Shown: one piece after another, positions 8,415 through 64,000 of the stretch
How positions within the stretch are numbered: the first letter of the stretch is position 1
How the letters are laid out: each line of letters starts with the position of its first letter
Assembly (NCBI GenBank): GCA_030390025.1
Contig: CM059438.1
Location: 7,502,001-7,566,000, forward strand
Length of the DNA stretch: 64,000 nucleotides
Origin: Squalus acanthias
Taxonomy: Eukaryota
Direction of reading: 5' to 3'
The notes under the pieces: model-generated
Told to the model about the DNA's origin: nothing
The model's input: the letters and a program-made list of their open reading frames with translations, nothing else
The model's database searches: none
Position numbers and translations under genes: made by a program

Positions 8415-8629
8415 TAATAGTTATTGGAGATGGCAAAAACAGGTTATTTGGCTGAGAGTGAAGAATCATCCAATTGGGAAATGAAGAGTCCTTTCCTTTT
8501 CCAATTGGCGTGGGAAGGAGGTGCGGCACGAGGACGGATGTATTGGGTGACCAGTGGCGGGGCGGGCAGAGGCAGGAGGTCATGTGATGAAACATCCAGG
8601 AATACGTCCAACCCGAGCTGGCAATCCAA
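8415..8629. mobile_element. Partial hAT-type MITE, family of 54993-55355
   Basis: Colinear with 55150-55355 (ttccaattggcg...ggcaggaggtcatg...tccaacc). Confidence 0.7.
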
Positions 8630-8689
8630 GTGTTGGAAGTAGGTTTGCGCCCCAAGTTCCCTCATGCCCAAGTAGTAAGCCAAGTGCCT

Positions 8690-8945
8690 ACGTTCTCTAG
8701 TGCCCTAGTTATAGATGTGTCTTGTGATCCCCAGTGCCCTAGTTTTAGACAATGTGTCCCAGTTATAGATGACGCCGCTATGTTTCCTGGTATGCTGATT
8801 ATAAACCATGCATCTGTGATCCACGGTGCTCTAGTTGGAGAGGATGTGCTCCTGATCCCCAGTGTCCTGTTTATAGATGATGTGTCAGTGTCTCCTTGTG
8901 CCCTAGTTATGAAGCATGAATTCCCTTGTGTCCTAGTTTTAAAAT
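8690..8945. repeat. Degenerate ~36-bp minisatellite, about 8 units
   Basis: Recurrent gtgccctagttatagatga... blocks, mostly at 36-bp spacing. Confidence 0.75.
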
Positions 8946-9359
8946 GGTATCCCTTCAGATTTTTGGATTTTGATTTGAGTCGTCCGAACACCATTTATCA
9001 CGAGTTGGAAATCTTCAGGATGCCCTTTGTATCTGTGAAATACTGGTGAAGAAAGCAAGGAGGGCAATGCTGAAGTGACGGCTTTAGAGGTATTTTATTT
9101 AACTGCTGTCTCTGCCCCAATAGTTTACCCATTGTTTTCTGAAGCAATTGTATCATCGGGAACAGAATCTCATAAAGCAAAAAACCCTCTTGTGTCAGAC
9201 CTGATGGCACTGTCAATGCATTTTTGAACACTATTAAAATAATAGCTTAAAAGGAGTCAGGTCCCGAGAGAGGGCAGGAAAAACATACTGGGTATAAAAC
9301 ATCTGAAAGTAAGGTTGATTTTGATGTGTGTGTTATTGTGTCTCTTGGAAATGTCTCAA

Positions 9360-28560: not shown

Positions 28561-29322
28561 GGCCCAGAAATTAGGCTCCCTGGCTTCCCGCGGGTGCAAG
28601 GATCCCATGCGCACATACCTACCGCGCCTGCCGTTGACCTCTGGGCCCACGGGGACTTCAGCTCCTGGGCCTTCCCCAGCTGCCGGCGCGCAGTGCTTGT
28701 GTATCCCAGGGGCGTATTTAGTGTGATGCGTCCCCTGGGATCACGTGGACCATGGAGAGCCAATGGCAGCAGACCATCTTTCATTCATAGATTTGACAGG
28801 ACCTGTCAAATCGATGAATTGAAATCGGCCCCAAAACAACTCCTAAACTTCAAATAATTTTTTTTAAAAACCATCCCATTTTTAAAATAACTATAAGTTA
28901 AATAAATTAACTACTTTAAACAAAAATTAAAATTTTTGAAAAATTTAAAATACTTTTTAACAGTGCTAAAAATAAACTTACCTTTCTTTAAAATATCTAA
29001 AAAAGATAAACCTGTTGAAATTTTTTTTAAATTGTAATTAATTAACCACTTACCTTGTTGAAAACGGGTCTTGCGCCTCCTTTTTAAAAGCGCAGCTTCT
29101 TCAATACTTACCTCCCGGAGAAACCTGAAAAAAACCCTAAGTTTGCTGTGTGCGCGCAGCCTCTACCGCGCACGCGGTTCACCTCTGAACCGCTCCCTTC
29201 ACCAGACCGGAAGTTCCGGTTTCCCGTGCATGCGCAGTGCATGCAGGAAACCGGCACTTCAGGAGGCCTTACGGGTGAGTACAGAGCGCGTACTCACCCG
29301 GGAAGGGCCGAATTTTTGGCCC
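28561..29322. mobile_element. Harbinger-type MITE (762 bp) with AT-rich centre
   Basis: TIRs ggcccagaaatt / aatttttggccc, TSD AAT/AAT. Close second copy at 53679-54445. Confidence 0.88.
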
Positions 29323-35487: not shown

Positions 35488-37456
35488 CTACTTGTGCATT
35501 ATCTTCCTCTTACGCATGCTCCTACGTGGTGCTTCCCCTGTGGCTTCAGCAGATGTGGAGGCCCCTTGCTCACTTTCTTGCTGCTCCTGTCTTGACACCT
35601 TTGGTGGACGTCCTCTGGGGTTGCGAGCCTGTGAGGGCTCGCCAACAGTCTGCTGCTCCTGCGGCTGTGCAGGGGTTGAGATGCCGATCTCAGTTGGATG
35701 GGGACTCTGGTGGGGCTCTGACCGAGGGCTCTGCAGTGGCATGGTCGTGTGAGCGCTTGGAGAGGAGCCCCCACTTCCTTGTTGTATGCCACCAACATCC
35801 CTCTCATGGGTCAGCCCCACTTCAGAGCTAGCAAGTGGCTGGACAGCTCCTTGCTGCACTGCAGGGGGGCCATGAGGACCCGTTTCTGCACTGGAAGCCC
35901 TACTCCAGAGGACTTGCATGAAGGTCTGGTTTGTTTGCTCAATAGCTGACCATCGCTCCTCAAGAGATGTCAGTCTATTCTGAACAATTACCATGTTTTC
36001 CATACCCTGGCGACTAAGCTCCTCCATGGACGTAGCCATCCTGTCCTCTACCGTAGCCATCCTGTCCTCTATGGTAGCCAGCCTTACCATGGAAGTAGCC
36101 ATCCTTTCCAAGGAGGTTGCCATCCTTTCCGCGGTGATGCGTTCATGCGCCAACACCTCCACAAAGGCTCTGCTCATGTTAGCGATGGACTCCTCCATTT
36201 GCTCCACACTCGCAGCGACCCTGGAGACAAAACCTGCCAGAGACTCCTGCACCTGTTCCTGGAGTTCCAGCACTGCTCTCCTTCTGGATGGACCCGGAGG
36301 CACAGGGTCGACATGCAGCGGAGCCGAGCTGGGAGCGTCCTCTCCAGTGCGATGAAGACTGTCTCCACCATCTGCTGATGCTCACTTGTGAGCTGTGATA
36401 CACCAGGTGACAACTCTACTCTATGTCCCGAAGGTCCCACCGAGGTGTGAGTGTCTGCGCTGGTGCTGGGTGCGCTTAATTCTGCTGACGGAGCGCCCTC
36501 AGAGGTTGCAGCTTCCTCTGAGGAGTCTGGAAGCTCAGGCTCTTTCTCCTGGACAGTGGGGATGGGGGCTCTCGATGTTCCTGTGGGGGAGTAAAGGAAA
36601 GAGTTAGAGATGTGAGGTAAAGGTTGCATGCACATTGAATTGTGCAGATGATCATAAGTCAATCTGTTAGAGCATCTGAATCATTATCAGTCACTCATGC
36701 AATGTCAATGAGAGAGATGCCAAACTATTCTGTCACCAGCTTGCTGTGATGCGCCCGCCTGTCGGTCCCCCACTTGGGAATCCTCCTCGATCCCGGCAAT
36801 TTCCAGGGCCGCCTCCTCCGAGGTGGTGAGCTGGGCTACTGAGGGTGGCCCTCCTCCTGTCCTCGCTCTTTCCCTCTTATTGTGGGCTCTCTTTTCCTGC
36901 AATGAGGGACACAAGTGGAGTTTGAGTGAGAATGAAGGAGTGAGTTTAGAGAATGCATAGCATAGATGCTTAGAAGGAGACAAAGGGCCCTCTCTGTGTG
37001 TTGTAAGTTGTTGTCATTGCGTCACAGTGATAGGGAGTGTGAGGGCTGCATGGTCGAATAGTTAAGTGAATGTGACCATAGAGAGAGAGGGAATGGGTAA
37101 GGGTGCAGGGATGTAAGTGTCAAGTGGCATGTGGAGGAAGAGGTTGGCAAAGCTGAGTGCTGGTGAGGAGAGGCGATGGGGATCAGATTGAGGGTGATGG
37201 GAAAGTCATACTCACTTTTCCTGTGCGGAGAAGGTCATGAAACCTCTTCCTGAACTGCAGCCAGGTTCTGCGGCACATAGAGATGGCATTGACTTCCTGG
37301 GCCACTTGTAGCCACACAGCTTTAGTCTGTTGTGGTGGCTTTTTTTCTCCCTGAGGAAGGGAAGAGCACCTCCTTATTAGATCTTGCTCCCTGCACCAGA
37401 GCTTGGAGGGAGGGCTCATCAAAGCGAGGTGCACACTTTTGCTAGCTGGTGGACAT
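35488..37456 (-). pseudogene. Three-exon Myb/SANT-like (MSANTD/NAIF1-type) DNA-binding gene of the Harbinger element
   Basis: Exons 37456-37216, 36896-36737 and 36580-35488 with GT-AG introns. Motifs APRF...W..VA..VNA...RTW.Q.RKRF.DL and RERARTGGGPP, a coiled coil and a basic RRSMRKRK end. One early stop and two frameshifts. Confidence 0.85.
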
Positions 37457-38082
37457 GGTCGGTAAATGAAGTCCTTCATACAATGCGTTTCCAGTCTCCA
37501 GAAGAAGCAAGGCTGCTTGCAGGCCTTAAATCCAGCAGCACTGATGACGTCATCGGAGGCGACTTTCTGTATGAAAAGACTCATTGGGCCAGTGGTTCCC
37601 ACACACAGGAAATCAATTGCCCAATTAGGGGAAAATCCCACTTTTTCAACACATCACTTAGGAGTCGGGGTCCTGACACGCCCCAGCCCGCCCACACTGA
37701 CAAAATCCAGCCCTGTGTCTCTATTAATAAAGCCAAGGATTCCATATTTTTTTTTAACAGCCTTCTCAACTTGTCCTGCCACCTTCAAAGATTTGTGTAA
37801 GTACACCCCCAGGTCTCTCTGTACCTGCACCCACTTTAAAACTGTACCATTTAGTTTATATTGCCTCTCCTCATTCTTCTGACCGTAATGTATCACTTCA
37901 CACTTCTCTGCGTTAAATTTCATCTGCCCTGTGTCTGCCCATTTCACCAGTCTGTCTATGTCCTCCTGAAGTCTGTTACTACTCTCCTCATTGTTTACTA
38001 CATTTCCGAGTTTTGTGTCGTCTGCAAACTTTGAAATTATGCCCTGTATACCCAAGTCCAGGTCTTTAATATATATCAAAAG

Positions 38083-38189
38083 TGAGAAGTCGCACAACAC
38101 CAGGTTATAGTCCAACAGATTTATTTAATTTTACAAGCTTTCGGAGCGATACAGAACGTGACTTGACATCACGGCCGGTCTTTCCAGCC
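38083..38189 (-). mobile_element. Short Penelope-like insertion
   Basis: 12-bp TSD atatatcaaaag at 38071-38082 and 38190-38201. Contains the 3' half of a hammerhead motif (ccGAAAgctt on the minus strand). Confidence 0.65.
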
Positions 38190-38212
38190 ATATATCAAAA
38201 GAGCAGTGATCC

Positions 38213-38568
38213 GAATAGGTCCTAAGCAGAGCCTGTTTCCTCTGGCTGGGGAGTCTAGAACTAGCAGTCATAGTCTCAGGATAAGGAGTCGGCCATTTAG
38301 GACTAAGATGAGGAGAAATTTTTTCACTCAGAGGATTGTGAATATTTGGAATTCTCTACCCCTGAGGGCTGTAGATGCTCAGTTGTTGAGTATATTCAGG
38401 ACTGAGATCGATAGACTTTTAGACACAAAGGGGATCAAGGAATATGGAGATGGGGCTGGAAAGTGGAGTTGAAGTAGACGATCAGCCATGATCTTTTTTA
38501 ATGGCGGAACAGGCTCAAGGGGCCGTATGGGCTACTCCTGCTCCTATTTCTTATGTTCGTATGTTCTT
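38213..38568 (+). mobile_element. CR1 3' end nested in a CR1
   Basis: RRNFFTQRIVNIWNSLP followed by the ttatgttc tail. Confidence 0.9.
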
Positions 38569-38824
38569 ATACCAACCCCTGGGGAACACCACTGTATACT
38601 TCCCTCCAGTCTGAAAAATAACCATTCACCATTACTATCTGCTTTCTGTACCTTAGCCAATTTCGTATCCACCCTGCCACTGTCCCTTTAGTCCTTTAAT
38701 TTGTCTATTCTGTGGTACTTTATCAAACGCCTTTTGAAAGTCCATACACACAACATCAACTGCACTACCCTCATCAACCCTCTCCATTACTTCATCAAAG
38801 AACTCAATCAAGTTAGTCAAACAC

Positions 38825-39838
38825 TAAATGAGCAATGGTGGGCGTTCAAGACGGAGATAGTTCGGGTACAAACCAAGCATATTCCCATAAGGAGGAAAGA
38901 TAGGGCATCCAAAGTTAGAGCTCCCTGGATGACAAAGGAAATAGAGATTAAAATAAAACAGAGAAAGGAAGCTTATGACTAATGTCAGGTCCAGAATACA
39001 GTAGAAACCAGGCAGAATACAGAGTGCAGGGGTATATTGAAAAAGGATATAAGAAGGGAAAAGAAAGAATATGAGAATAGATTAGTGACATAAAAGGGAA
39101 CCTAAAAATCTTTTATAAACATATAAAAAGTAAAAGGATAGTTAAAGGAATGGTGGGGCCAATTAGGGACAAGAAGGAAATTTTGTGGAGGAAGAGGGTG
39201 TGACTGAGGTACTGAATGAGTACTTTACATCTGTCTTCACAAAAGAAGAGGATGAAGTTAATGTCACAGTAGAGGAGGGGGGTGTAGAGATAATGGATAG
39301 GATAAAAATAGATAGAATTGAGGTGCTAAATAGGTTGGCATCACTCCCAGTTAACAAGTCACCCAGTCCAGATGGGATGCATCCTAGGTTGCTGAGGGAA
39401 GATAGGGTGGAGATAGCAGAAGCTCTGACCGCAATCTTTCAATCCTCCTTGGATATGGGTGTGGTGCCAGAGGACTGGAGGTTAGCAAATGTTGTACCCC
39501 TTTTCAAAAAAGGGGAGAGAGATAAACCTGGTAACTACAGACCAGACAGTCTAACGTCAGTAGTGGGGAAACTACTAGAGACCAGTGTCAAGGACAAAAT
39601 TAATTCTCACTTGGAGAAGCATGGGTTACTAAGGGGGACAGCCAGCACAGATTTGTTAAAGGCAAATCATGTCTGACTAACCTGATTGAGTTCTTTGATG
39701 AAGTAACAGAGAGGGTTGATGAAGGTAGTGCAGTAGATGTTGTATATACAGACTTTCAAAAGGCATTTGATAAAGTACCACATAACAGAACTATTTGGGA
39801 AATAGCAGTACATGGGATTAAAGGGACGGTGGTAACTT
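38825..39838 (+). mobile_element. CR1 ORF2 internal fragment
   Basis: KSPSPDGMHPRLL, DWRLANVVPLFKKG, NYRP and DFQKAFDKVPH motifs. Confidence 0.92.
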
Positions 39839-49095: not shown

Positions 49096-49495
49096 AATAA
49101 CAACAGAAAACGCTGGAAAAACTCAGCAGGCCAGGCAGCATCCGTGGAGAGAGAAAGAGAGTTAACGTTTCAGGTCGATGACCTTTCATCAGAACTGGGA
49201 AGAGCCGGAAATCAAATAGATTTAAGGCCAGGGTAAAGCTGGGAAAAGGGGGAGGGGATAAAGGAACAAAGGGGGAGATGAAGAGACATTAAGAGACATT
49301 AAGAGATATGCAAGGCTAGAGGTGGTGTTAATGTGACAGATTAAGGCTGAATGAAGTGTGAAATCCACTGGCAGAATGAAGGACAGCTGCCAGCTTCTAG
49401 GAGGAAAAAAAAAAGGTGGGGGGGCGGAACAAATAAAAATAAAATATAAATGTGATTGGAGCTGAGGTTATGATCTAAAATTGTTGAACTCGATT
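49096..49495 (-). mobile_element. Penelope-like retroelement end
   Basis: Terminal sequence of the type seen in shark Penelope elements, containing a hammerhead core. Flanking duplication atatttagcaat at 49087-49098 and 49506-49517. Confidence 0.75.
49160..49196 (-). ncRNA. Minimal type I hammerhead ribozyme motif
   Basis: Minus strand reads AGUU-CUGAUGA-A-AGGUC-auc-GACCU-GAAA-C-GUU-AACU: core boxes, stem II, stem I AGUU/AACU and a palindromic stem III. Confidence 0.8.
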
Positions 49496-52242: not shown

Positions 52243-52489
52243 AATAATAAATCTCAAGGTTAACTCCACATAAAACAAAAACCATTTCAACACCACAGTG
52301 TACAAACACATAGCACCATCATAATCCAATTAAATGCTACTGATAACACTTATGCCAATAAACCAAGAAAAAACCCGTTTTACGCCAGTCCTATTGGCAT
52401 TGTGCCTTAAAGGAGGTGAGAGAGGTGGAGAGGCCTTTGTTAATTGCTAATTGTTAATTGACCCTTCATTAAATCTAGGTTTGCAGTCT

Positions 52490-52572
52490 TCGACCTGAAA
52501 CGTTAACTCTCTTTCTCTCTCCACGGATGCTGCCTGGCCTGCTGAGTTTTTCCAGCGTTTTCTGTTGTTATT
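52490..52572 (+). mobile_element. Penelope-like 83-bp insert
   Basis: Exact reverse complement of 49096-49178. ttgcag flanks both sides (52481-52486 and 52573-52578). Confidence 0.8.
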
Positions 52573-53678: not shown

Positions 53679-54445
53679 GGCCCTGAAATTCGCCTCTCCG
53701 GCTTGCCGCGGGGGTAAGGATCGCGCGCACACTTACCTACCGCGCCTGCCGTTGACCTCTGGGCCCACGGGGACTTCAGCTGCTGGGCCTGCTCCAAGTG
53801 CCGGCGCGCAATGCGTGCGTGTCCCAGGGGCGCAGTTAGTGCGATGCATCCCCTGGGATCACGTGGGCCATGGAGAGCCAATGGCAGCAGACCATCTTTC
53901 ATTCATAGATTTGACAGGAAGACCTGTCAAATCTGTGAATTGAAATCGGCTCCAAAAGAACACCTAAACTTCAAATAAATTTTTTAAAAAACCATCACAT
54001 TTATAAAATAACTGTAAGTTAAATAAATTAACTACTTTAAACAAAAATTTAAATTTTTGAAAAAATTAAAATACTTTTTAACAGTGCGAAAAATAAACTT
54101 ACCTTTCTTTAAAGTATCTAAAAAAGATAAACCTGTTGAAATTTTTTTTAAATTATACTTAATTAACCACTTACCTTGTTAAAAACGGGTCCTGCGCCTC
54201 CTTTTTAAAAGTGCAGGTTCTTCAATACTTACCCTCCCGTAGAAACCTGAAAAAAACCCTAAGTTTGCTGCGTGCGCGCAGCCTCTACCGCGCACGCGGT
54301 TCACCTCTGAACCGCCCCCTTCACCAGACCGGAAGTTCCGGTTTCCCGCGCATGCGCAGTGCATGCAGGAAACCGGCACTTGAGGACGCCTTACGGGGTG
54401 AGTGCACAGCGCGTGCTCCCCCGGGAAGGGACGAATTTTTGGCCC
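53679..54445. mobile_element. Harbinger-type MITE, second copy of 28561-29322
   Basis: End-to-end colinear with the first copy. Flanks AGT/AAT. Confidence 0.88.
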
Positions 54446-55788: not shown

Positions 55789-58350
55789 GGCCGCAAAATT
55801 TGGCACCTTAGCGCCAGCGGCTATGGCCTGGAAATCATGGGCTGAAAGCTCCGCGCAGAGCCCCGGGTAATGTTGGAGTCGGACTCCTCCATGCTCCTTG
55901 TTCGTGACAAGAGGCTCTCTGGCAGGCCTGCCATTGCACCAAGCATTTCTGTGTGTATGCCCATCGCCCTTCTTCTGAAGGCTGCCCCATCGCAGTCCTC
56001 ATCTGACTCCTCTGCAGCAGAACTCATGTGCGACCTTGCCCTCCGGGGAGCTGGCACCCGAGCTATCCTTTCCTCATGGCCTGGCTGCAGCCCACTTATG
56101 CCCAGTGACTCACCACGTGCGGATCTTGCCTCCCTATTACCCTCTAAAGTTTGCACAGAGCCATTTTCTGAGTTGGTGTCTGGGAGTGTCAGATCAAGCG
56201 ATGGCGTCTCTTCTTCTCCATCGCTCGCCTTCTCTACTTCTTCCTGCACAGGCTGGGCTGGTGGCAGTTCTTGGGTATCTGAAAGGAGAAAGGCACAAGG
56301 GTCGGGTTGTGGTGAGGGGAGGGGGGGAAAGCAAGATGTGCATGCTTACACCATCAGCAACTTGTAAGTGAGAAGAGATTGTGGGTTGAGCAGGAAGTAG
56401 GATGAGAGGAAGGATTAGGTATGAGCATACCGTCATCATCAATGCTTTCAGCCTCTCCGATCGCCATGGCCTCAGTGACGGCCCCTCCAGTGATCTCCAG
56501 CACAGTCTCCTCCAGCTGAGTCAGGTTCTGCAGCCGTGCTTGTCCCCGCCTGTTTGCTCCTGGTCACACCGGTTGTGAGCCACCTTGGCCTGCAAGAGAA
56601 AGGGAAGTGTGTCGGTGAGTGTGGTGCAATGTGTTTAGGTGATGAGCCTGTCACGGTAGGATAGCTGGCATTATGTGTGAGATGTGGGTGTGAGGCTTGC
56701 AACAGTGGTAAGTGTGTGAGGGTCAGGTGAAGCTATGATTGTGAGGTATGAGTCGTAATTGCTAGAGATTGTTGGTTGGTGAGTGATGGAGGAGTGGTGC
56801 ATTGAGCAGTGTGTGAGGCTAGTAGTGCAGTTTTTTTTAATATTTATTCCTGGGATGTGGGCATCGCTGGCAAGGCCAGCATTTATTGCCCATCCCTAAT
56901 TGCCCTTGAGAAGGTGGTGGTGAGCTGCCTTCTTGAACCGCTGCAGTCCGTGTGGTGAAGTTGCTCCCACAGTGCTGTGAGGGAGGGAGTTCCAGGATTT
57001 TGACACAGCGACGATGAAGGATTGGCGATATACTTCCAAGTCAGGATGGTGTGTGACTTGGAGGGGAACTTGGAGGTGGTGGTGTTCCCATGCGCCTGCT
57101 GCCCTTGTCCTTCAAGGTGGTAGAGGTTGCGGGTTTGGGAGGTGCTGCCGAAGAAGCCTTGGCGAGTTGGTGCAGTGCATCTTGTAGATGGTACACACTG
57201 CAGCCACGGTGCGCCGGTGGTGGAGGGAGTGAATGTTTAAGGTGGTGGATGGGATGCCAATCAAGCGGGCTGCTTTGTCCTGGATAGTGTTGTTGGAGCT
57301 GCACTCATCCAGGCAAGTGGAGAGTATTCCATCGCACTCCTTACTTATGCCTTCTAGATGGTGGAAAGGCTTTGGGGAGGCAGGAGGTGAGACACTCGCC
57401 GTAGAATACCCAGCCTCTGACCTGCTCTTGTTGCCACAGTAATTATGTGGCTGGTCCAGTTAAGTTTCTGGTCAATGGTGATCCCAAGGATGTTGATGGT
57501 GGGGGATTCGGCGATGGTAATGCCGTTGAATGTTATGGGGCGGTGGTTAGAGATAGTCATTGCCTGGCACTTGTGTGGCGCGAATGTTACCTGCCACTTA
57601 TCAGCCCAAGCCTGAATGTCGTCCAGGTCTTGTTGCATGCGGGCATGGACTGTTTCATTGTCTGAGGAGCGGCGAAAGGCACTGAACACTGTGCAGTCAT
57701 CCGCGAACATCCCCATTTTTGACCTTATGTTGGAGGGAAGGTCATTGATGAAGCAACTGAAGTTGGTAGTATTTGGCATTTGAAGATGCATTCACTCACC
57801 TTAACCACTCATGTGAGGTCATTAAACTTCTTGTGGCATTGATCCATATCCTGGCAGAAAGACTGGTGGCACTGACCGCATCAGCAATCTCCTCCCACTG
57901 CCTTCGAACAGTGTGCCTGGAAGACCTCCTGGCCCCCTGTGAGTAGAGGACCTTTCTCCTCCTATAGACACCCCGCACCAAGGCCTCCAGTGCAGCATCG
58001 GAGAACCAAGGTGCCCTTTCTCTGTCCTGTTGTGACATTTCTTACTTCCCCTTTGTGTATCTCGAGTCAGAATGATATACTCACAAAGCACCTCCCCTTT
58101 AAGAAGTGCAGGCAGCCTTTCACCCTGCAGGCAACCTTTAAATATAGAGCAGACTTCCCACGATATTGGGCCCCCTGTTGAGCGCTGAGCCAACCAGCAG
58201 CATGTTTAGCGCTGGGCTCAGTGTTACAATCATGTTAATGAGCAGGCAGCACGAATTTCGCGTGCTGCCTGCACGACTTTCAACGGGGGTGGGCAGATCG
58301 CGCATCACGATCCCCGCGCCCGTTTTCGGACCTCATTCAATTTAGCCACC
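55789..58350 (-). mobile_element. Harbinger element with a three-exon Myb/SANT pseudogene and no transposase
   Basis: TSD TTA/TTA, ends ggccgcaaaatt / aatttagccacc. Exons 58038-57800 (RERAPWFSDAALEALV...QWEEIA), 56589-56431 and 56278-~55821 with GT-AG introns. Confidence 0.82.
56832..57760 (-). mobile_element. CR1-group LINE 3' fragment inside intron 1 of the Myb gene
   Basis: FINDLP...MFADDC...WADKWQVTF...LGITIDQKLNW, with an A-rich tail. Confidence 0.9.
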
Positions 58351-60439: not shown

Positions 60440-61222
60440 TGGGGTGCAGTAGCATAGTGGTTATGTTACTGGACTAGTAAGCTAGAGGTGTGGACTCATA
60501 ATCCAGTGAAGGTGAGTTGAAATACCACCATGGCAGTTTGAGAATTTGAATTCAGTTTAAAAAAAATCTGGAATGAGAAACCTCTCGGATTGTTATAAAA
60601 ATCCAACTGGTTCACTAATGTCCTTTAGGGAATGAACCCTTCGCCCTTGCCCGGTCTGACCTATATGTGACTCCGGTCCTACACCAATGCGGTTGCCTCT
60701 TAAGTGGCCAACAAAACCACTCAGTTATATCAAACTATTACCGGTGGTTTAAGAAGAAGGTCTTACCACCATCTTTTTTTTTATTCGTTTATGGGATGTG
60801 GGCGTCGCTGGCAAGGCTAGCATTTATTGCCCATCCCTAATTGCCCTTGAGAAGGTGGTGGGGAGCCGTCGCCTTGAACCACTGCAGTCCGTGTGGTGAA
60901 GGTACTCCCACAGTGCTGTTAGGGAGGGAGTTCCAGGATTTTGACCCAGCGACGATGAAGGAACGGCGATATACTTCCAAGTCAGGATGGTGTGTGCCTT
61001 GGAGGGGAACTTGGAGGTGGTGGTGTTCCCTTGCGCCTGCTGCCCTTGTCCTTCTAGGTGGAAGAGGTCACGGGTTTGGGAGGTGCTGCCAAGGAAGCCT
61101 TGGCGAGTTGCTGCAGTGCATCTTGTAGATGGTACACACTGCAGCCACGGTACGCCGGTGGTGGAGGGAGTGAATGTTTAAGGTAGTGGATGGGGTGCCA
61201 ATCAAGCGGGCTGCTTTGTCCA
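60440..61222. mobile_element. Second-family SINE (+, 60440-60772) tail-to-tail with its partner LINE (-, 60773-61222)
   Basis: Similarity to 11070-11390 and to 56832-57285. Confidence 0.85.
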
Positions 61223-61670
61223 GGGAGATTGAGAGAACCCTGTGGAAATTCTCCCCCACTATGTTTAAGGTTTTTCCACAAAATGTGACAATGTAATGTT
61301 CCTGTCAGTCACAGGTACAGTCATTGGTGAATCACCTGTGCCAGAACATGATGGGCCCAAAATTCCAAACGGACCATTACACCAACTTTTATTGTTATTC
61401 TGGGTGGTGGAGGTCATGGGTGTGGGAGGTGCTGTTGAAGAAGCCTTGGCAAGTTGCCGCAGTGCATCCTGCCGGTAGTACACTCTGCAGCCATGGTACG
61501 CCGATGGTGGAGGGACTGAATGTTTAAGCCAGTGGATGGGGTGGCTAAAGCTGGATGTGCCAGCATTTTTTTCCAATCCCATTTTTGCTACATTCTTAAC
61601 TTTTTTCAAATCATGCCCGCCCTCTCCCAACTGAAGTTGTCTGAACATAAGAATGTCTGGAACCCTGCAC

Positions 61671-62814
61671 TTCAGACCCATCAGGATTCTAATCACTACA
61701 TCACATTTCTTCTACTGTCGGAACGCCCGTGTATTTTCATTGCTTTTTAATCTCTTAACGGGTGATTGTTTTGTTCACTTTCCACAAAAGTCTGCCTCTA
61801 ACGCGCTGGTTACATCTTGGTTACACAGGACGTGAGAAGAGAGGGAAGACCTCAATGTCTGCGCCGTCCACATTCAGCTCAGATTCACGGCTCCGGAGTC
61901 TTCCCACATGTTGCAATAAGGGAAGCAAACCCTGGGCATGGACTGACTCCAGATGATGAGCTGGAAAGAGTTGTTTATCCAGCTGTCCAAAGGACAGGTA
62001 ACTTTCCAATTAGATACAATAGGAAGGATTCAAGTTCTCTGAAAATTTGACGGCCTGCCACTTTGATAATAAGAAGTCGGTGTGCTATTGATATTGTGTC
62101 ACTAAATACCACTGGACCATTAGTAACAATTGTATCGTATCATACTTACAAATCAGCCGATAGACACCCGGGAGCAGAATATCATTACAGCACCAACTTT
62201 GACAAAACTTTGACTCTCTCAATACCCAATATTGGATTGCAGTAAATTGGGCCCCAAGAGTGCAAGCAGCCTTTCTACTATAAGAATTCTGGATCTTGCG
62301 TTGTTTGGGAGTGCAGTGCATATGATGCTCGCTTCTCATTGCCAGAACCACTCTTTCGAGTGTCAGTACGGGCTGACACTAATAAATCAATCACTGTCAG
62401 TTTTGTTGGTGCCCAGCTGACACTTGAATCTGCTAACTACATATGTAATGAAACCCTTGTCAGTCCTCCAGACAGGCTGCGCGGTGGGACAACTCACAGA
62501 AATAGAGCGCCGGAGTCTGATGGGGGAATTGATATGCTGTCTAATTACAAGCTCCCACTCCCACTCCCCCCCTTAGGCCAGAGGCAGGCATCTGTCCTTC
62601 CGACTAAACAAGCGAGAAACCTTTTTAGGCTTTTGAATCTTACGGAGGAGCCTGTGCTTCTGCTACCGCTGCGAAGCTGGATACGTGACGAGAATGCACA
62701 ATTGTGGCAGGTGAACAAAACAATCACCCGTTAAAAGATTAAAAAGCAATGAGAATACATGGGCATTCTGACTGGAGTACACAGTTTACTGATTCGACTA
62801 TTGATGGATCTGAA
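61671..62814 (+). mobile_element. Unclassified inverted-repeat-bounded element with a decayed reading frame
   Basis: ~115-bp inverted repeats, with core 61731-61778 vs 62711-62758 identical at 46/48. A single frame 61802-62734 has only two internal stops. Confidence 0.6.
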
Positions 62815-63082
62815 TTGTAACTGTAGTGAGTCAAACTAGCAGGAGACTCTTTGTTTAAGTGTCTCCTTTAGACAGGAAGCAGGTGGGTGGATTCGTCCTA
62901 ATGCATTTCAGAGGCTTAATTTTTTTTTACGGTTCCCAACGGACCTTTCATCCATTACCTCAGCAAATAATAGTATTTTTCAATCAAAACATCATGTTCT
63001 GAAAAATTGCATTATCTATCAGGCTATTGAGTCATATCTTGAAGTGCAGTCCATTTATTAGAAAACTGGAAGGAAAGATAAT

Positions 63083-63760
63083 GGGCCATAATTTGCGACC
63101 CCCCCTCCACGGGTGCGTATGCGCCTGTAGGGGCCGCGCAAGTTCCGGGTTTAGGCAGGCGCATGCGCGCAAACCCAGAACTTGTGATCTGTCAAGAATT
63201 CTCTTGACAGATGATCCGCATCCCCGGGAGAAGGGACCCCGCGGGCAGCCAGTTGCGCTATTTGCCCAACTTCCGCCTATTGAATGCCCATGAAATTCTT
63301 ACGCCTGGCGTAAGGCCTGCTTTTACCAGCATAAGAGTTCTAAAAAATAGAAAAATAGAAATTTATCACTCATTTATACTTGAAAAACCCTGTCCAACAA
63401 GGTAAGTTTATTTTTAGCCCCGTTAAGACATAAAAAAAAATCCTCAAAAAATTAAATGTTTGTTTAAAATATTTAATTAAATGGCATTTTAATTAATTTT
63501 AAATATATCCGTTTGTACGGGTCTCCCATAAGTATGAATGGGGATTCCCTTCTTTTATTGGTTGGGCCGGCCCACGTGATCCCTGGAACGCTTGCGAACC
63601 GCGTGCGCCCCTGGGATACTTGGGCCTCTGCCCACGGGTACCCAGAGAGAGCCAGCAGCGCGATTCTCCGTACCTTCTGGACCACCAGGTAAATTCGTAG
63701 ATTTTTTTACAGGTCGGAGGCATCCGCCCGCAGGAAGCCTCCGACTGCAAATTTTGGGCC
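63083..63760. mobile_element. Harbinger-type MITE (678 bp)
   Basis: TIRs gggccataatttgc / gcaaattttgggcc, TSD AAT/AAT. Related in reverse orientation to 28561-29322. Confidence 0.85.
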
Positions 63761-63769
63761 AATATAGTT

Positions 63770-64000
63770 ACAACAATAGCAGCAACAACAACTTGCATTT
63801 ATGTAGTGCCTTTAACATAGTAAAACGTCCCAAGGCGATTCACAGGAGCGTTATCAAAAAGAATTTGACACCAAGCCACAGAAGCAGATATTAGGACAGG
63901 TGAGCGAATGCTTGATCAAAGAGGCGGAGAGGTTTAAGGAGGGAATTCCAGAAATTAGGGCCTAGGCAGCTGAAGGCACGGCCGCCAGTGGTGGAGCGCT
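63770..64000 (-). mobile_element. L2 LINE 3' end
   Basis: (CAA)n tail and reverse similarity to 8150-8400. Confidence 0.85.

Follow-up and report, generated by a model that had tools for sequence, protein, structure and literature searches.

The twin priming model and 5′-inverted retrocopies of mRNAs are both covered in the available text of PMC2912911. In humans, twin-priming insertions with duplicated inversion breakpoints have been reported, as have short inverted duplications with a median length of 284 bp (excerpts of PMC12350158). The locus described here lies at 61668-62817 of a window of 64,000 nucleotides, the window being the whole stretch of DNA that was analysed. It resembles the retrocopies of these two sources in its inverted junction pair about 1 kb apart, its truncated 5′ end and its lack of a terminal motif. 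However, the same excerpts describe such copies for mammalian L1 and its cargo, whereas the locus has no visible poly(A) or target duplication, its second piece is untraceable past the arm, and its cargo has no known parent. Template-switch inverted duplications, in the same portion of PMC12350158, likewise place 100-300 nt in reverse near the source without flanking repeats; these are young human variants, whereas the copy at the locus is 8-21% diverged and any junction microhomology is unreadable.

Pack-TIRs and Pack-MULEs also carry non-transposase DNA inside inverted repeats, often as single copies, but their definition in the accessible part of PMC8277862 calls for the ends of a known TIR family, a parental cargo copy and target duplications, and the locus showed none of these. 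Endogenous viral elements, as presented in extracts of PMC11089739 and PMC11521997, share with the locus an intronless decayed frame, orthology in related hosts and occurrence at several loci; the present frame shows no similarity to sampled viral proteins, and the screens behind such elements, which start from known viruses, would miss it. Compared by description with the lokiretrovirus Env (PMC7947760, in part), the frame stops in both arm copies and lacks a fusion body and LTR. Finally, the hallmarks that the available portions of PMC3846280 and PMC11167929 give for Penelope-like elements, namely a pLTR hammerhead, a reverse transcriptase (RT) and GIY-YIG, were not found at the locus.

There is about an even chance that the locus is an old coding fossil whose mobile or viral family has not been sampled, together with a local inverted duplication of the fossil's 3′ end. 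The features on which the argument draws are as follows:

61668..61787, minus strand: left arm, an inverted copy of the frame's last 11 codons, stop, ATTAAA and about 80 nt of 3′ sequence.
61802..62734, plus strand: decayed frame of 310 codons without a start codon, with stops at 62048 and 62243 and probably a third break near 61936.
62162..62200, plus strand: best-conserved stretch of the source family, shared by two further contigs of organism A and one of organism K.
62261..62446, plus strand: Ig-like signature, a motif only, with Cys154, Trp169 and E-S-A-x-Y-x-Cys215 (Cys gap 61).
62702..62817, plus strand: right arm, holding the frame end, final stop and 3′ sequence; in organisms D and K it runs on unbroken into both the interior and the right flank.
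62738..62743, plus strand: ATTAAA, which we take to be a polyadenylation-signal variant, 3 nt past the final stop, with a second copy in the left arm.
62819..62825, minus strand: TA then CAGTT, presumably akin to a Tc1-type end, at the right end only and with no counterpart at the left end.
38704..39789, no strand assigned: CR1-type LINE whose inversion junction carries a 120-nt inverted duplication, an internal control outside the locus.

The initial annotation had described inverted repeats of about 115 bp around some 920 bp, and this description holds: the arms at 61668-61787 and 62702-62817 align over 120 columns at 79% identity (blastn, E 4e-24), enclose a 914-nt spacer and contain an ungapped core of 76 nt at 88%. 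An assembly artefact is ruled out by a contig of organism A that spans 61545-63085 with 4 differences (the run may be the assembly's own sample). The window contains 19 inverted pairs of at least 60 nt lying within 5 kb, three of which, including the present one and the pair in the CR1 LINE, have no third copy there. Matches between the arms number 58/63 in the inner 63 nt and 24/31 in the outer 31 nt, with a weak middle; identity falls outward, and the matching outer ends of a TIR were not found. Outside the arms the sequences do not align (140 of 500 shuffles score equally well), and no poly(A) or LINE tail was seen on the minus strand in 61544-61667, left of the left arm. The frame ends 33 nt inside the right arm, and the left arm is therefore a reverse copy of the gene's own end. 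At position 62735, in the right arm, organisms D and K carry the left-arm base, which indicates that the left arm was copied before lineage A changed there and that the arms are not being homogenised at that position.

The arms could also be true TIRs of an old DNA element (long-TIR Tc1-type, MULE-like or Polinton-like), in which case the locus would be an internally deleted copy with the stop and poly(A) signal of a passenger or accessory gene inside the repeat. Arms of about 120 nt, a frame that fills the interior almost exactly, the TA-CAGTT at the right end and the relatives at other loci all fit such an element. The arm divergence of 8-21% is, moreover, near the A-K divergence of 12%, as expected of one old insertion, and Pack-TIRs exist in animals according to the part of PMC8277862 at hand. 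Yet no target duplication of at least 5 nt was seen at any candidate end pair (5-11 nt searched; age could erase one), the outer ends are unmatched and less alike than the inner ones, and neither a transposase or other family domain nor a parental host gene was matched. The first two of these points, together with an arm that is the frame's own 3′ end, also tell against the earlier idea of a gene captured between transposon ends, and a CR1 LINE of equal geometry within the window weakens both views. True TIRs are thus possible but doubtful.

The frame itself bears out much of what was first said of it. Three open reading frames form a single frame of about 310 codons, broken only by TGA at 62048 and TAA at 62243, and it runs into the right arm as claimed. 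About 15 stops had been expected by chance; the computed figure is 16.2, against 2 observed (P of two or fewer = 1e-5), and the last 265 codons alone show the deficit at P = 8e-5. None of 2000 dinucleotide shuffles reached 310 codons (mean 158, maximum 303), and among 6017 window spans with two internal stops 11 are equally long, the other 10 lying in five loci that are mostly LINE- or Harbinger-type. Codon-position bias is weak (p = 0.025), and the amino-acid composition is not clearly protein-like (p = 0.12), although its per-residue score of -0.05 resembles the -0.004 to -0.055 of the decayed LINE and Harbinger frames of the window. The frame has no introns, and neither a transposase domain nor a target duplication of at least 5 nt was found.

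A chance stop-poor non-coding stretch beside a local inverted duplication would be compatible with the lack of a homologue or fold, the composition and the absence of selection, and rare frames do get picked when about 250,000 windows are scanned. The stop deficit and codon-position bias argue otherwise, as do the relatives in register and an Ig-like motif held in the same frame, one of two such motifs among 127,996 six-frame residues; chance has a very slim likelihood, and the frame is supported as a genuine coding fossil. Its five N-x-S/T sequons (residues 102, 194, 216, 279 and 305) exceed a shuffle mean of 2.1 (p = 0.04). The first Met does not occur before residue 245, and no hydrophobic stretch that might be a signal peptide or membrane anchor is present in the frame (the most hydrophobic 19 residues score 1.33); the gene has lost its 5′ end. 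The term glycoprotein, applied to the frame at the outset, is thus favoured by the sequon excess and disfavoured by the lack of a signal peptide.

The age of the locus follows from other genomes. Sequencing runs with part of the stretch (20 of 23 listed, from 9 studies) include five coded organisms with a word share of at least 0.24; contigs of four runs were compared, and organisms F, G, I and J, with word shares below 0.2, were left out of the counts. In organism D, a 1368-nt contig covers 61789-63085 with 51 substitutions (3.9%) and 32 gap letters, 25 letters are added, and dips in depth suggest that one nucleotide is absent from 61909-61960 and three from 62533-62584. In organism K, a 1636-nt contig keeps the order of the window from 61900 to 63046. 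It differs by 93 substitutions in 783 nt (11.9%), carries indels of non-triplet length at 61936-61938, 62220 and 62289-62320, and has other sequence in place of three stretches. Because the A, D and K contigs are colinear, the interior, right arm and right flank make up one old locus, and the insertion into the germ line predates the divergence of A, D and K.

Within the frame, 35 changes between A and K appear among the 40 of 115 substitution rows shown, distributed 14/12/9 over codon positions 1/2/3; 7 are synonymous, 27 missense and 1 nonsense, giving a dN/dS of about 1.2-1.6. There is no sign of selection on the protein in the A-K comparison, the pattern is one of neutral decay, and the locus has no present coding function in that comparison. 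The initial annotation had suggested dN/dS among copies as a check, and the values reveal no purifying selection. It had also staked its proposal on a fold or homology match and on a frame kept in other copies; no match was obtained and the most distant copy, that of K, breaks the frame, so that one of its own grounds for refutation largely applies.

Simulated decay at 6% substitutions produces a mean of 1.85 stops, compared with 2 observed. The simulated chance that 930 nt remain without a frameshift at this divergence is only 0.015-0.12, which sits badly with the preferred reading of a decayed fossil. Near 61936, D and K each differ in length by a number of nucleotides that is no multiple of three, which probably points to a hidden third frame break there. 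The almost frameshift-free frame of lineage A, unlikely under neutrality, could instead mark a living or recently living host gene or exon, but two in-frame stops, the missing start codon, the frameshifts and a dN/dS above 1 relative to K leave that reading a minimal probability.

The left side is less readily followed. The D contig switches to 23 unlike letters at 61789, two bases off the inner end of the left arm; this loose end has no match within the window, and a repeat inserted at 61789 in D would explain it. Neither D nor K has a contig on the left arm, a coverage gap that is no proof of absence, and organism A (55% of the run read) has no other contig on either arm, a gap that proves nothing. 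The loose end of K before 61900 resembles 61622-61669 by eye, and another K contig fits that flank better; if the loose end is that flank, K would be without the left arm. No empty insertion site was seen in the contigs of the compared runs. A 185-nt contig at 62430-62614 has no differences at a depth of 2.3, but its run is RNA by guess only and was left out of the evidence; no RNA runs are listed as carrying the stretch.

The conserved stretch at 62162..62200 extends the comparison beyond this locus. Past 62200 its three contigs continue in register with 16/30 ungapped matches (p = 0.002, by eye), and their upstream ends resemble one another and the window. On these sequence matches, the cargo is part of an old dispersed family with distant relatives at other loci.

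Searches for the source of the frame were negative across a wide range. Pfam gave 0 families for 7 queries (the frame and its pieces), NCBIfam gave 0 for the frame and pieces, and family-profile searches found no transposase, RT, GIY-YIG or recombinase domain in the frame. A word-indexed protein search confirmed none among 3126 longer and 1810 near-length candidates and 11 longer candidates for a 64-aa piece; viral and metagenome contigs gave 10 and 135 pattern matches, none confirmed; and no viral protein similarity was found, in searches that miss unsampled families. In the literature, no apt paper was found on an Ig gene in a shark mobile element or on such a locus. With phmmer, 1.84 billion representatives returned a single match, P0001 (E 1.6e-4, 25% identity), which was rejected as a homologue: it is a singleton repeat protein of bacterial look that matches through four repeats, so that its score is repeat-inflated. 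Likenesses to motifs of parvovirus capsids and of gamma-type Env were also set aside, since their order and spacing misfit and they had no search support. No parental host copy of the cargo was matched at the protein level. A host parent should be an easy match, yet no host protein matches, and other loci hold distant relatives; the source is therefore likely to be mobile or viral and unsampled. To that extent the original suggestion of a virus- or transposon-derived fragment survives; its assignment to the Ig superfamily has a motif-level signature in its favour and negative family, PDB and fold searches against it.

Ig domains show a B-strand Cys, a C-strand Trp and D/E-x-A/G-x-Y-x-Cys, with the two Cys spaced 55-75 apart. 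The two Ig-like peptides and five sequons first reported are all present as quoted. The Cys-Trp-Cys pattern arose in 0 of 20,000 shuffles, for a pattern chosen after seeing the sequence. Its F-strand motif alone arose in 55 of 20,000, and the window has two instances of it among 127,996 six-frame residues. A loose E-F pattern is matched by residues 139-154 (14 of 20,000 shuffles, with the break as a wildcard and the pattern set post hoc). Both Ig-like readings need Cys154, which cannot serve both, and the residues preceding it are not B-strand-like; a Pro-rich stretch follows the possible module. AlphaFold2 without an alignment gave models at pLDDT 31 and 36, too poor to test the fold, and Foldseek and VIA matches to these poor models were meaningless or absent. 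Among PDB sequences the best match was Dscam (E 0.51, whole frame), the others ranging up to E 1.9, and a 76-aa piece had no match. The encoded protein is inferred to be beta-rich, and whether it is Ig-like is an evenly balanced question. Confirmation of the Ig fold would make the locus an example, in this fish group, of a mobile element that captured an Ig gene.

Two readings give the Ig-like character a larger part. In the first, a host Ig-superfamily gene would have left a processed pseudogene or a stray fragment, and the inverted duplication would have arisen at or after insertion. The lack of introns, the stop followed by ATTAAA, the Ig-like motifs and the Dscam match agree with this, and 5′-inverted mRNA retrocopies are known (PMC2912911, in part). 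However, a parent at 10-15% DNA divergence should match easily and none was found, Cys154 is unable to serve both Ig readings, and no host exon was recognised among 150 of the window's 157 non-repeat ORFs of at least 70 aa, in which only RT and Myb/SANT domains exceeded the curated Pfam cut-offs (the two ORFs of the frame were covered by its own Pfam search); a host origin is unlikely. In the second, the frame would be a captured Ig accessory gene, immune-modulating or for attachment. It would stem from a virus or virus-like transposon of cartilaginous fishes, itself unsampled, that reached the germ line more than once, with the arms as its termini and its last gene ending inside the repeat; this is rather improbable.

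Inverted ends around captured cargo could also be the pseudo-LTRs or terminal repeats, in opposite orientation, of a Penelope- or DIRS-like derivative. The accessible part of PMC3846280 describes Penelope copies that lie between inverted pLTRs and lack a target duplication, as well as the capture of host DNA. None of the window's 7 hammerhead-core matches lies inside the arms, though, Rfam has 0 matches in 60500-64000, and RT, GIY-YIG and recombinase domains are lacking, so that such a derivative is quite improbable. Elsewhere in the window, an 87-nt inverted pair at 49096-49182 and 52486-52572 (99% alike, 3.3 kb apart), whose left copy is overlapped by a hammerhead-core match at 49168-49192, probably represents two young Penelope-type ends facing apart.

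The CR1-type LINE offers a control for the geometry. Its arms at 38704-38823 and 39670-39789 are 120 nt long, lie 847 nt apart and are 89% alike, compared with 73-79% to most other CR1 pieces and 73-74% to a third copy. Numbered by an in-window yardstick, its plus piece is nt 312-833 and the abutting minus piece nt 666 to 1327. Judged by this sequence layout, the CR1 at 38570-39837 is a 5′ inversion with a duplicated junction. The split LINE as a whole occupies 37696-39837, its plus piece running from the linker to the start of the RT and its minus piece from the RT onward; a separate plus-strand CR1 3′ end sits within the minus piece at 38227-38579. The control cautions against taking every pair of 120-nt inverted arms about 1 kb apart for the ends of a transposon. 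It would also be a small finding itself, a 5′ inversion with duplicated junction in a non-L1 LINE, a class with almost no inversions in cell culture in the available text of PMC4245944.

By likeness to this CR1, an inversion geometry is argued for the present locus. The arms would be a by-product, given that there is no target duplication, that inner identity exceeds that of the ends, that no third copy occurs in the window and that the arm is the frame's own end. In the preferred reading, the locus would be an old, fixed fragment of a protein-coding gene whose family, of mobile elements or of viruses, is absent from protein databases; the piece lacks its 5′ end and would terminate in the stop and ATTAAA, and its last 120 nt would have been copied once, reversed, beside its 5′ break. 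This may have happened in a twin-priming-like way, when reverse transcription inserted the piece with its 5′ part inverted and the junction duplicated, or through a later replication template switch. Culture experiments obtained 5′ inversions from hardly any source but human L1 in human cells, with none from the L2 element ZfL2-1 (PMC4245944, in part); twin priming is thereby weakened for fish, and a later template switch is as likely. The fossil-and-duplication reading has further difficulties: the parent element or RNA was not found, no tail was seen left of the left arm, the sequences beyond the arms are unalignable, and the CR1 control could be two adjacent insertions of one subfamily. The composition (p = 0.12), D's unlike letters at 61789 and the Tc1-like right end also count against it. 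As a dead locus it is useful mainly as a pointer, as the frame and its in-register relatives would provide a handle on an unsampled family, since homology-led screens for viral fossils are blind to families without a sampled relative.

The window is otherwise repeat-rich. A 152-codon plus-strand frame at 8591-9049 overlaps a 110-codon minus-strand frame, with no second copy in the window and no Pfam match. On the minus strand, 35491-37653 and 55824-58041 are two remnants with Myb/SANT domains (PF13873), presumably of Harbinger type. Just right of the locus, 63083-63763 looks like a MITE: it is GC-rich, its inverted ends are short, and related sequence lies at 28878-28984 and 54026-54105; the D contigs end about 30 nt inside it. 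The left flank at 61546-61635 has homologues on three separate short K contigs and may be an old low-copy repeat. Finally, 61046-61197 and 61392-61543 form a 152-nt direct repeat, 84% alike, of a LINE-type family that also occurs at 56831-57283.
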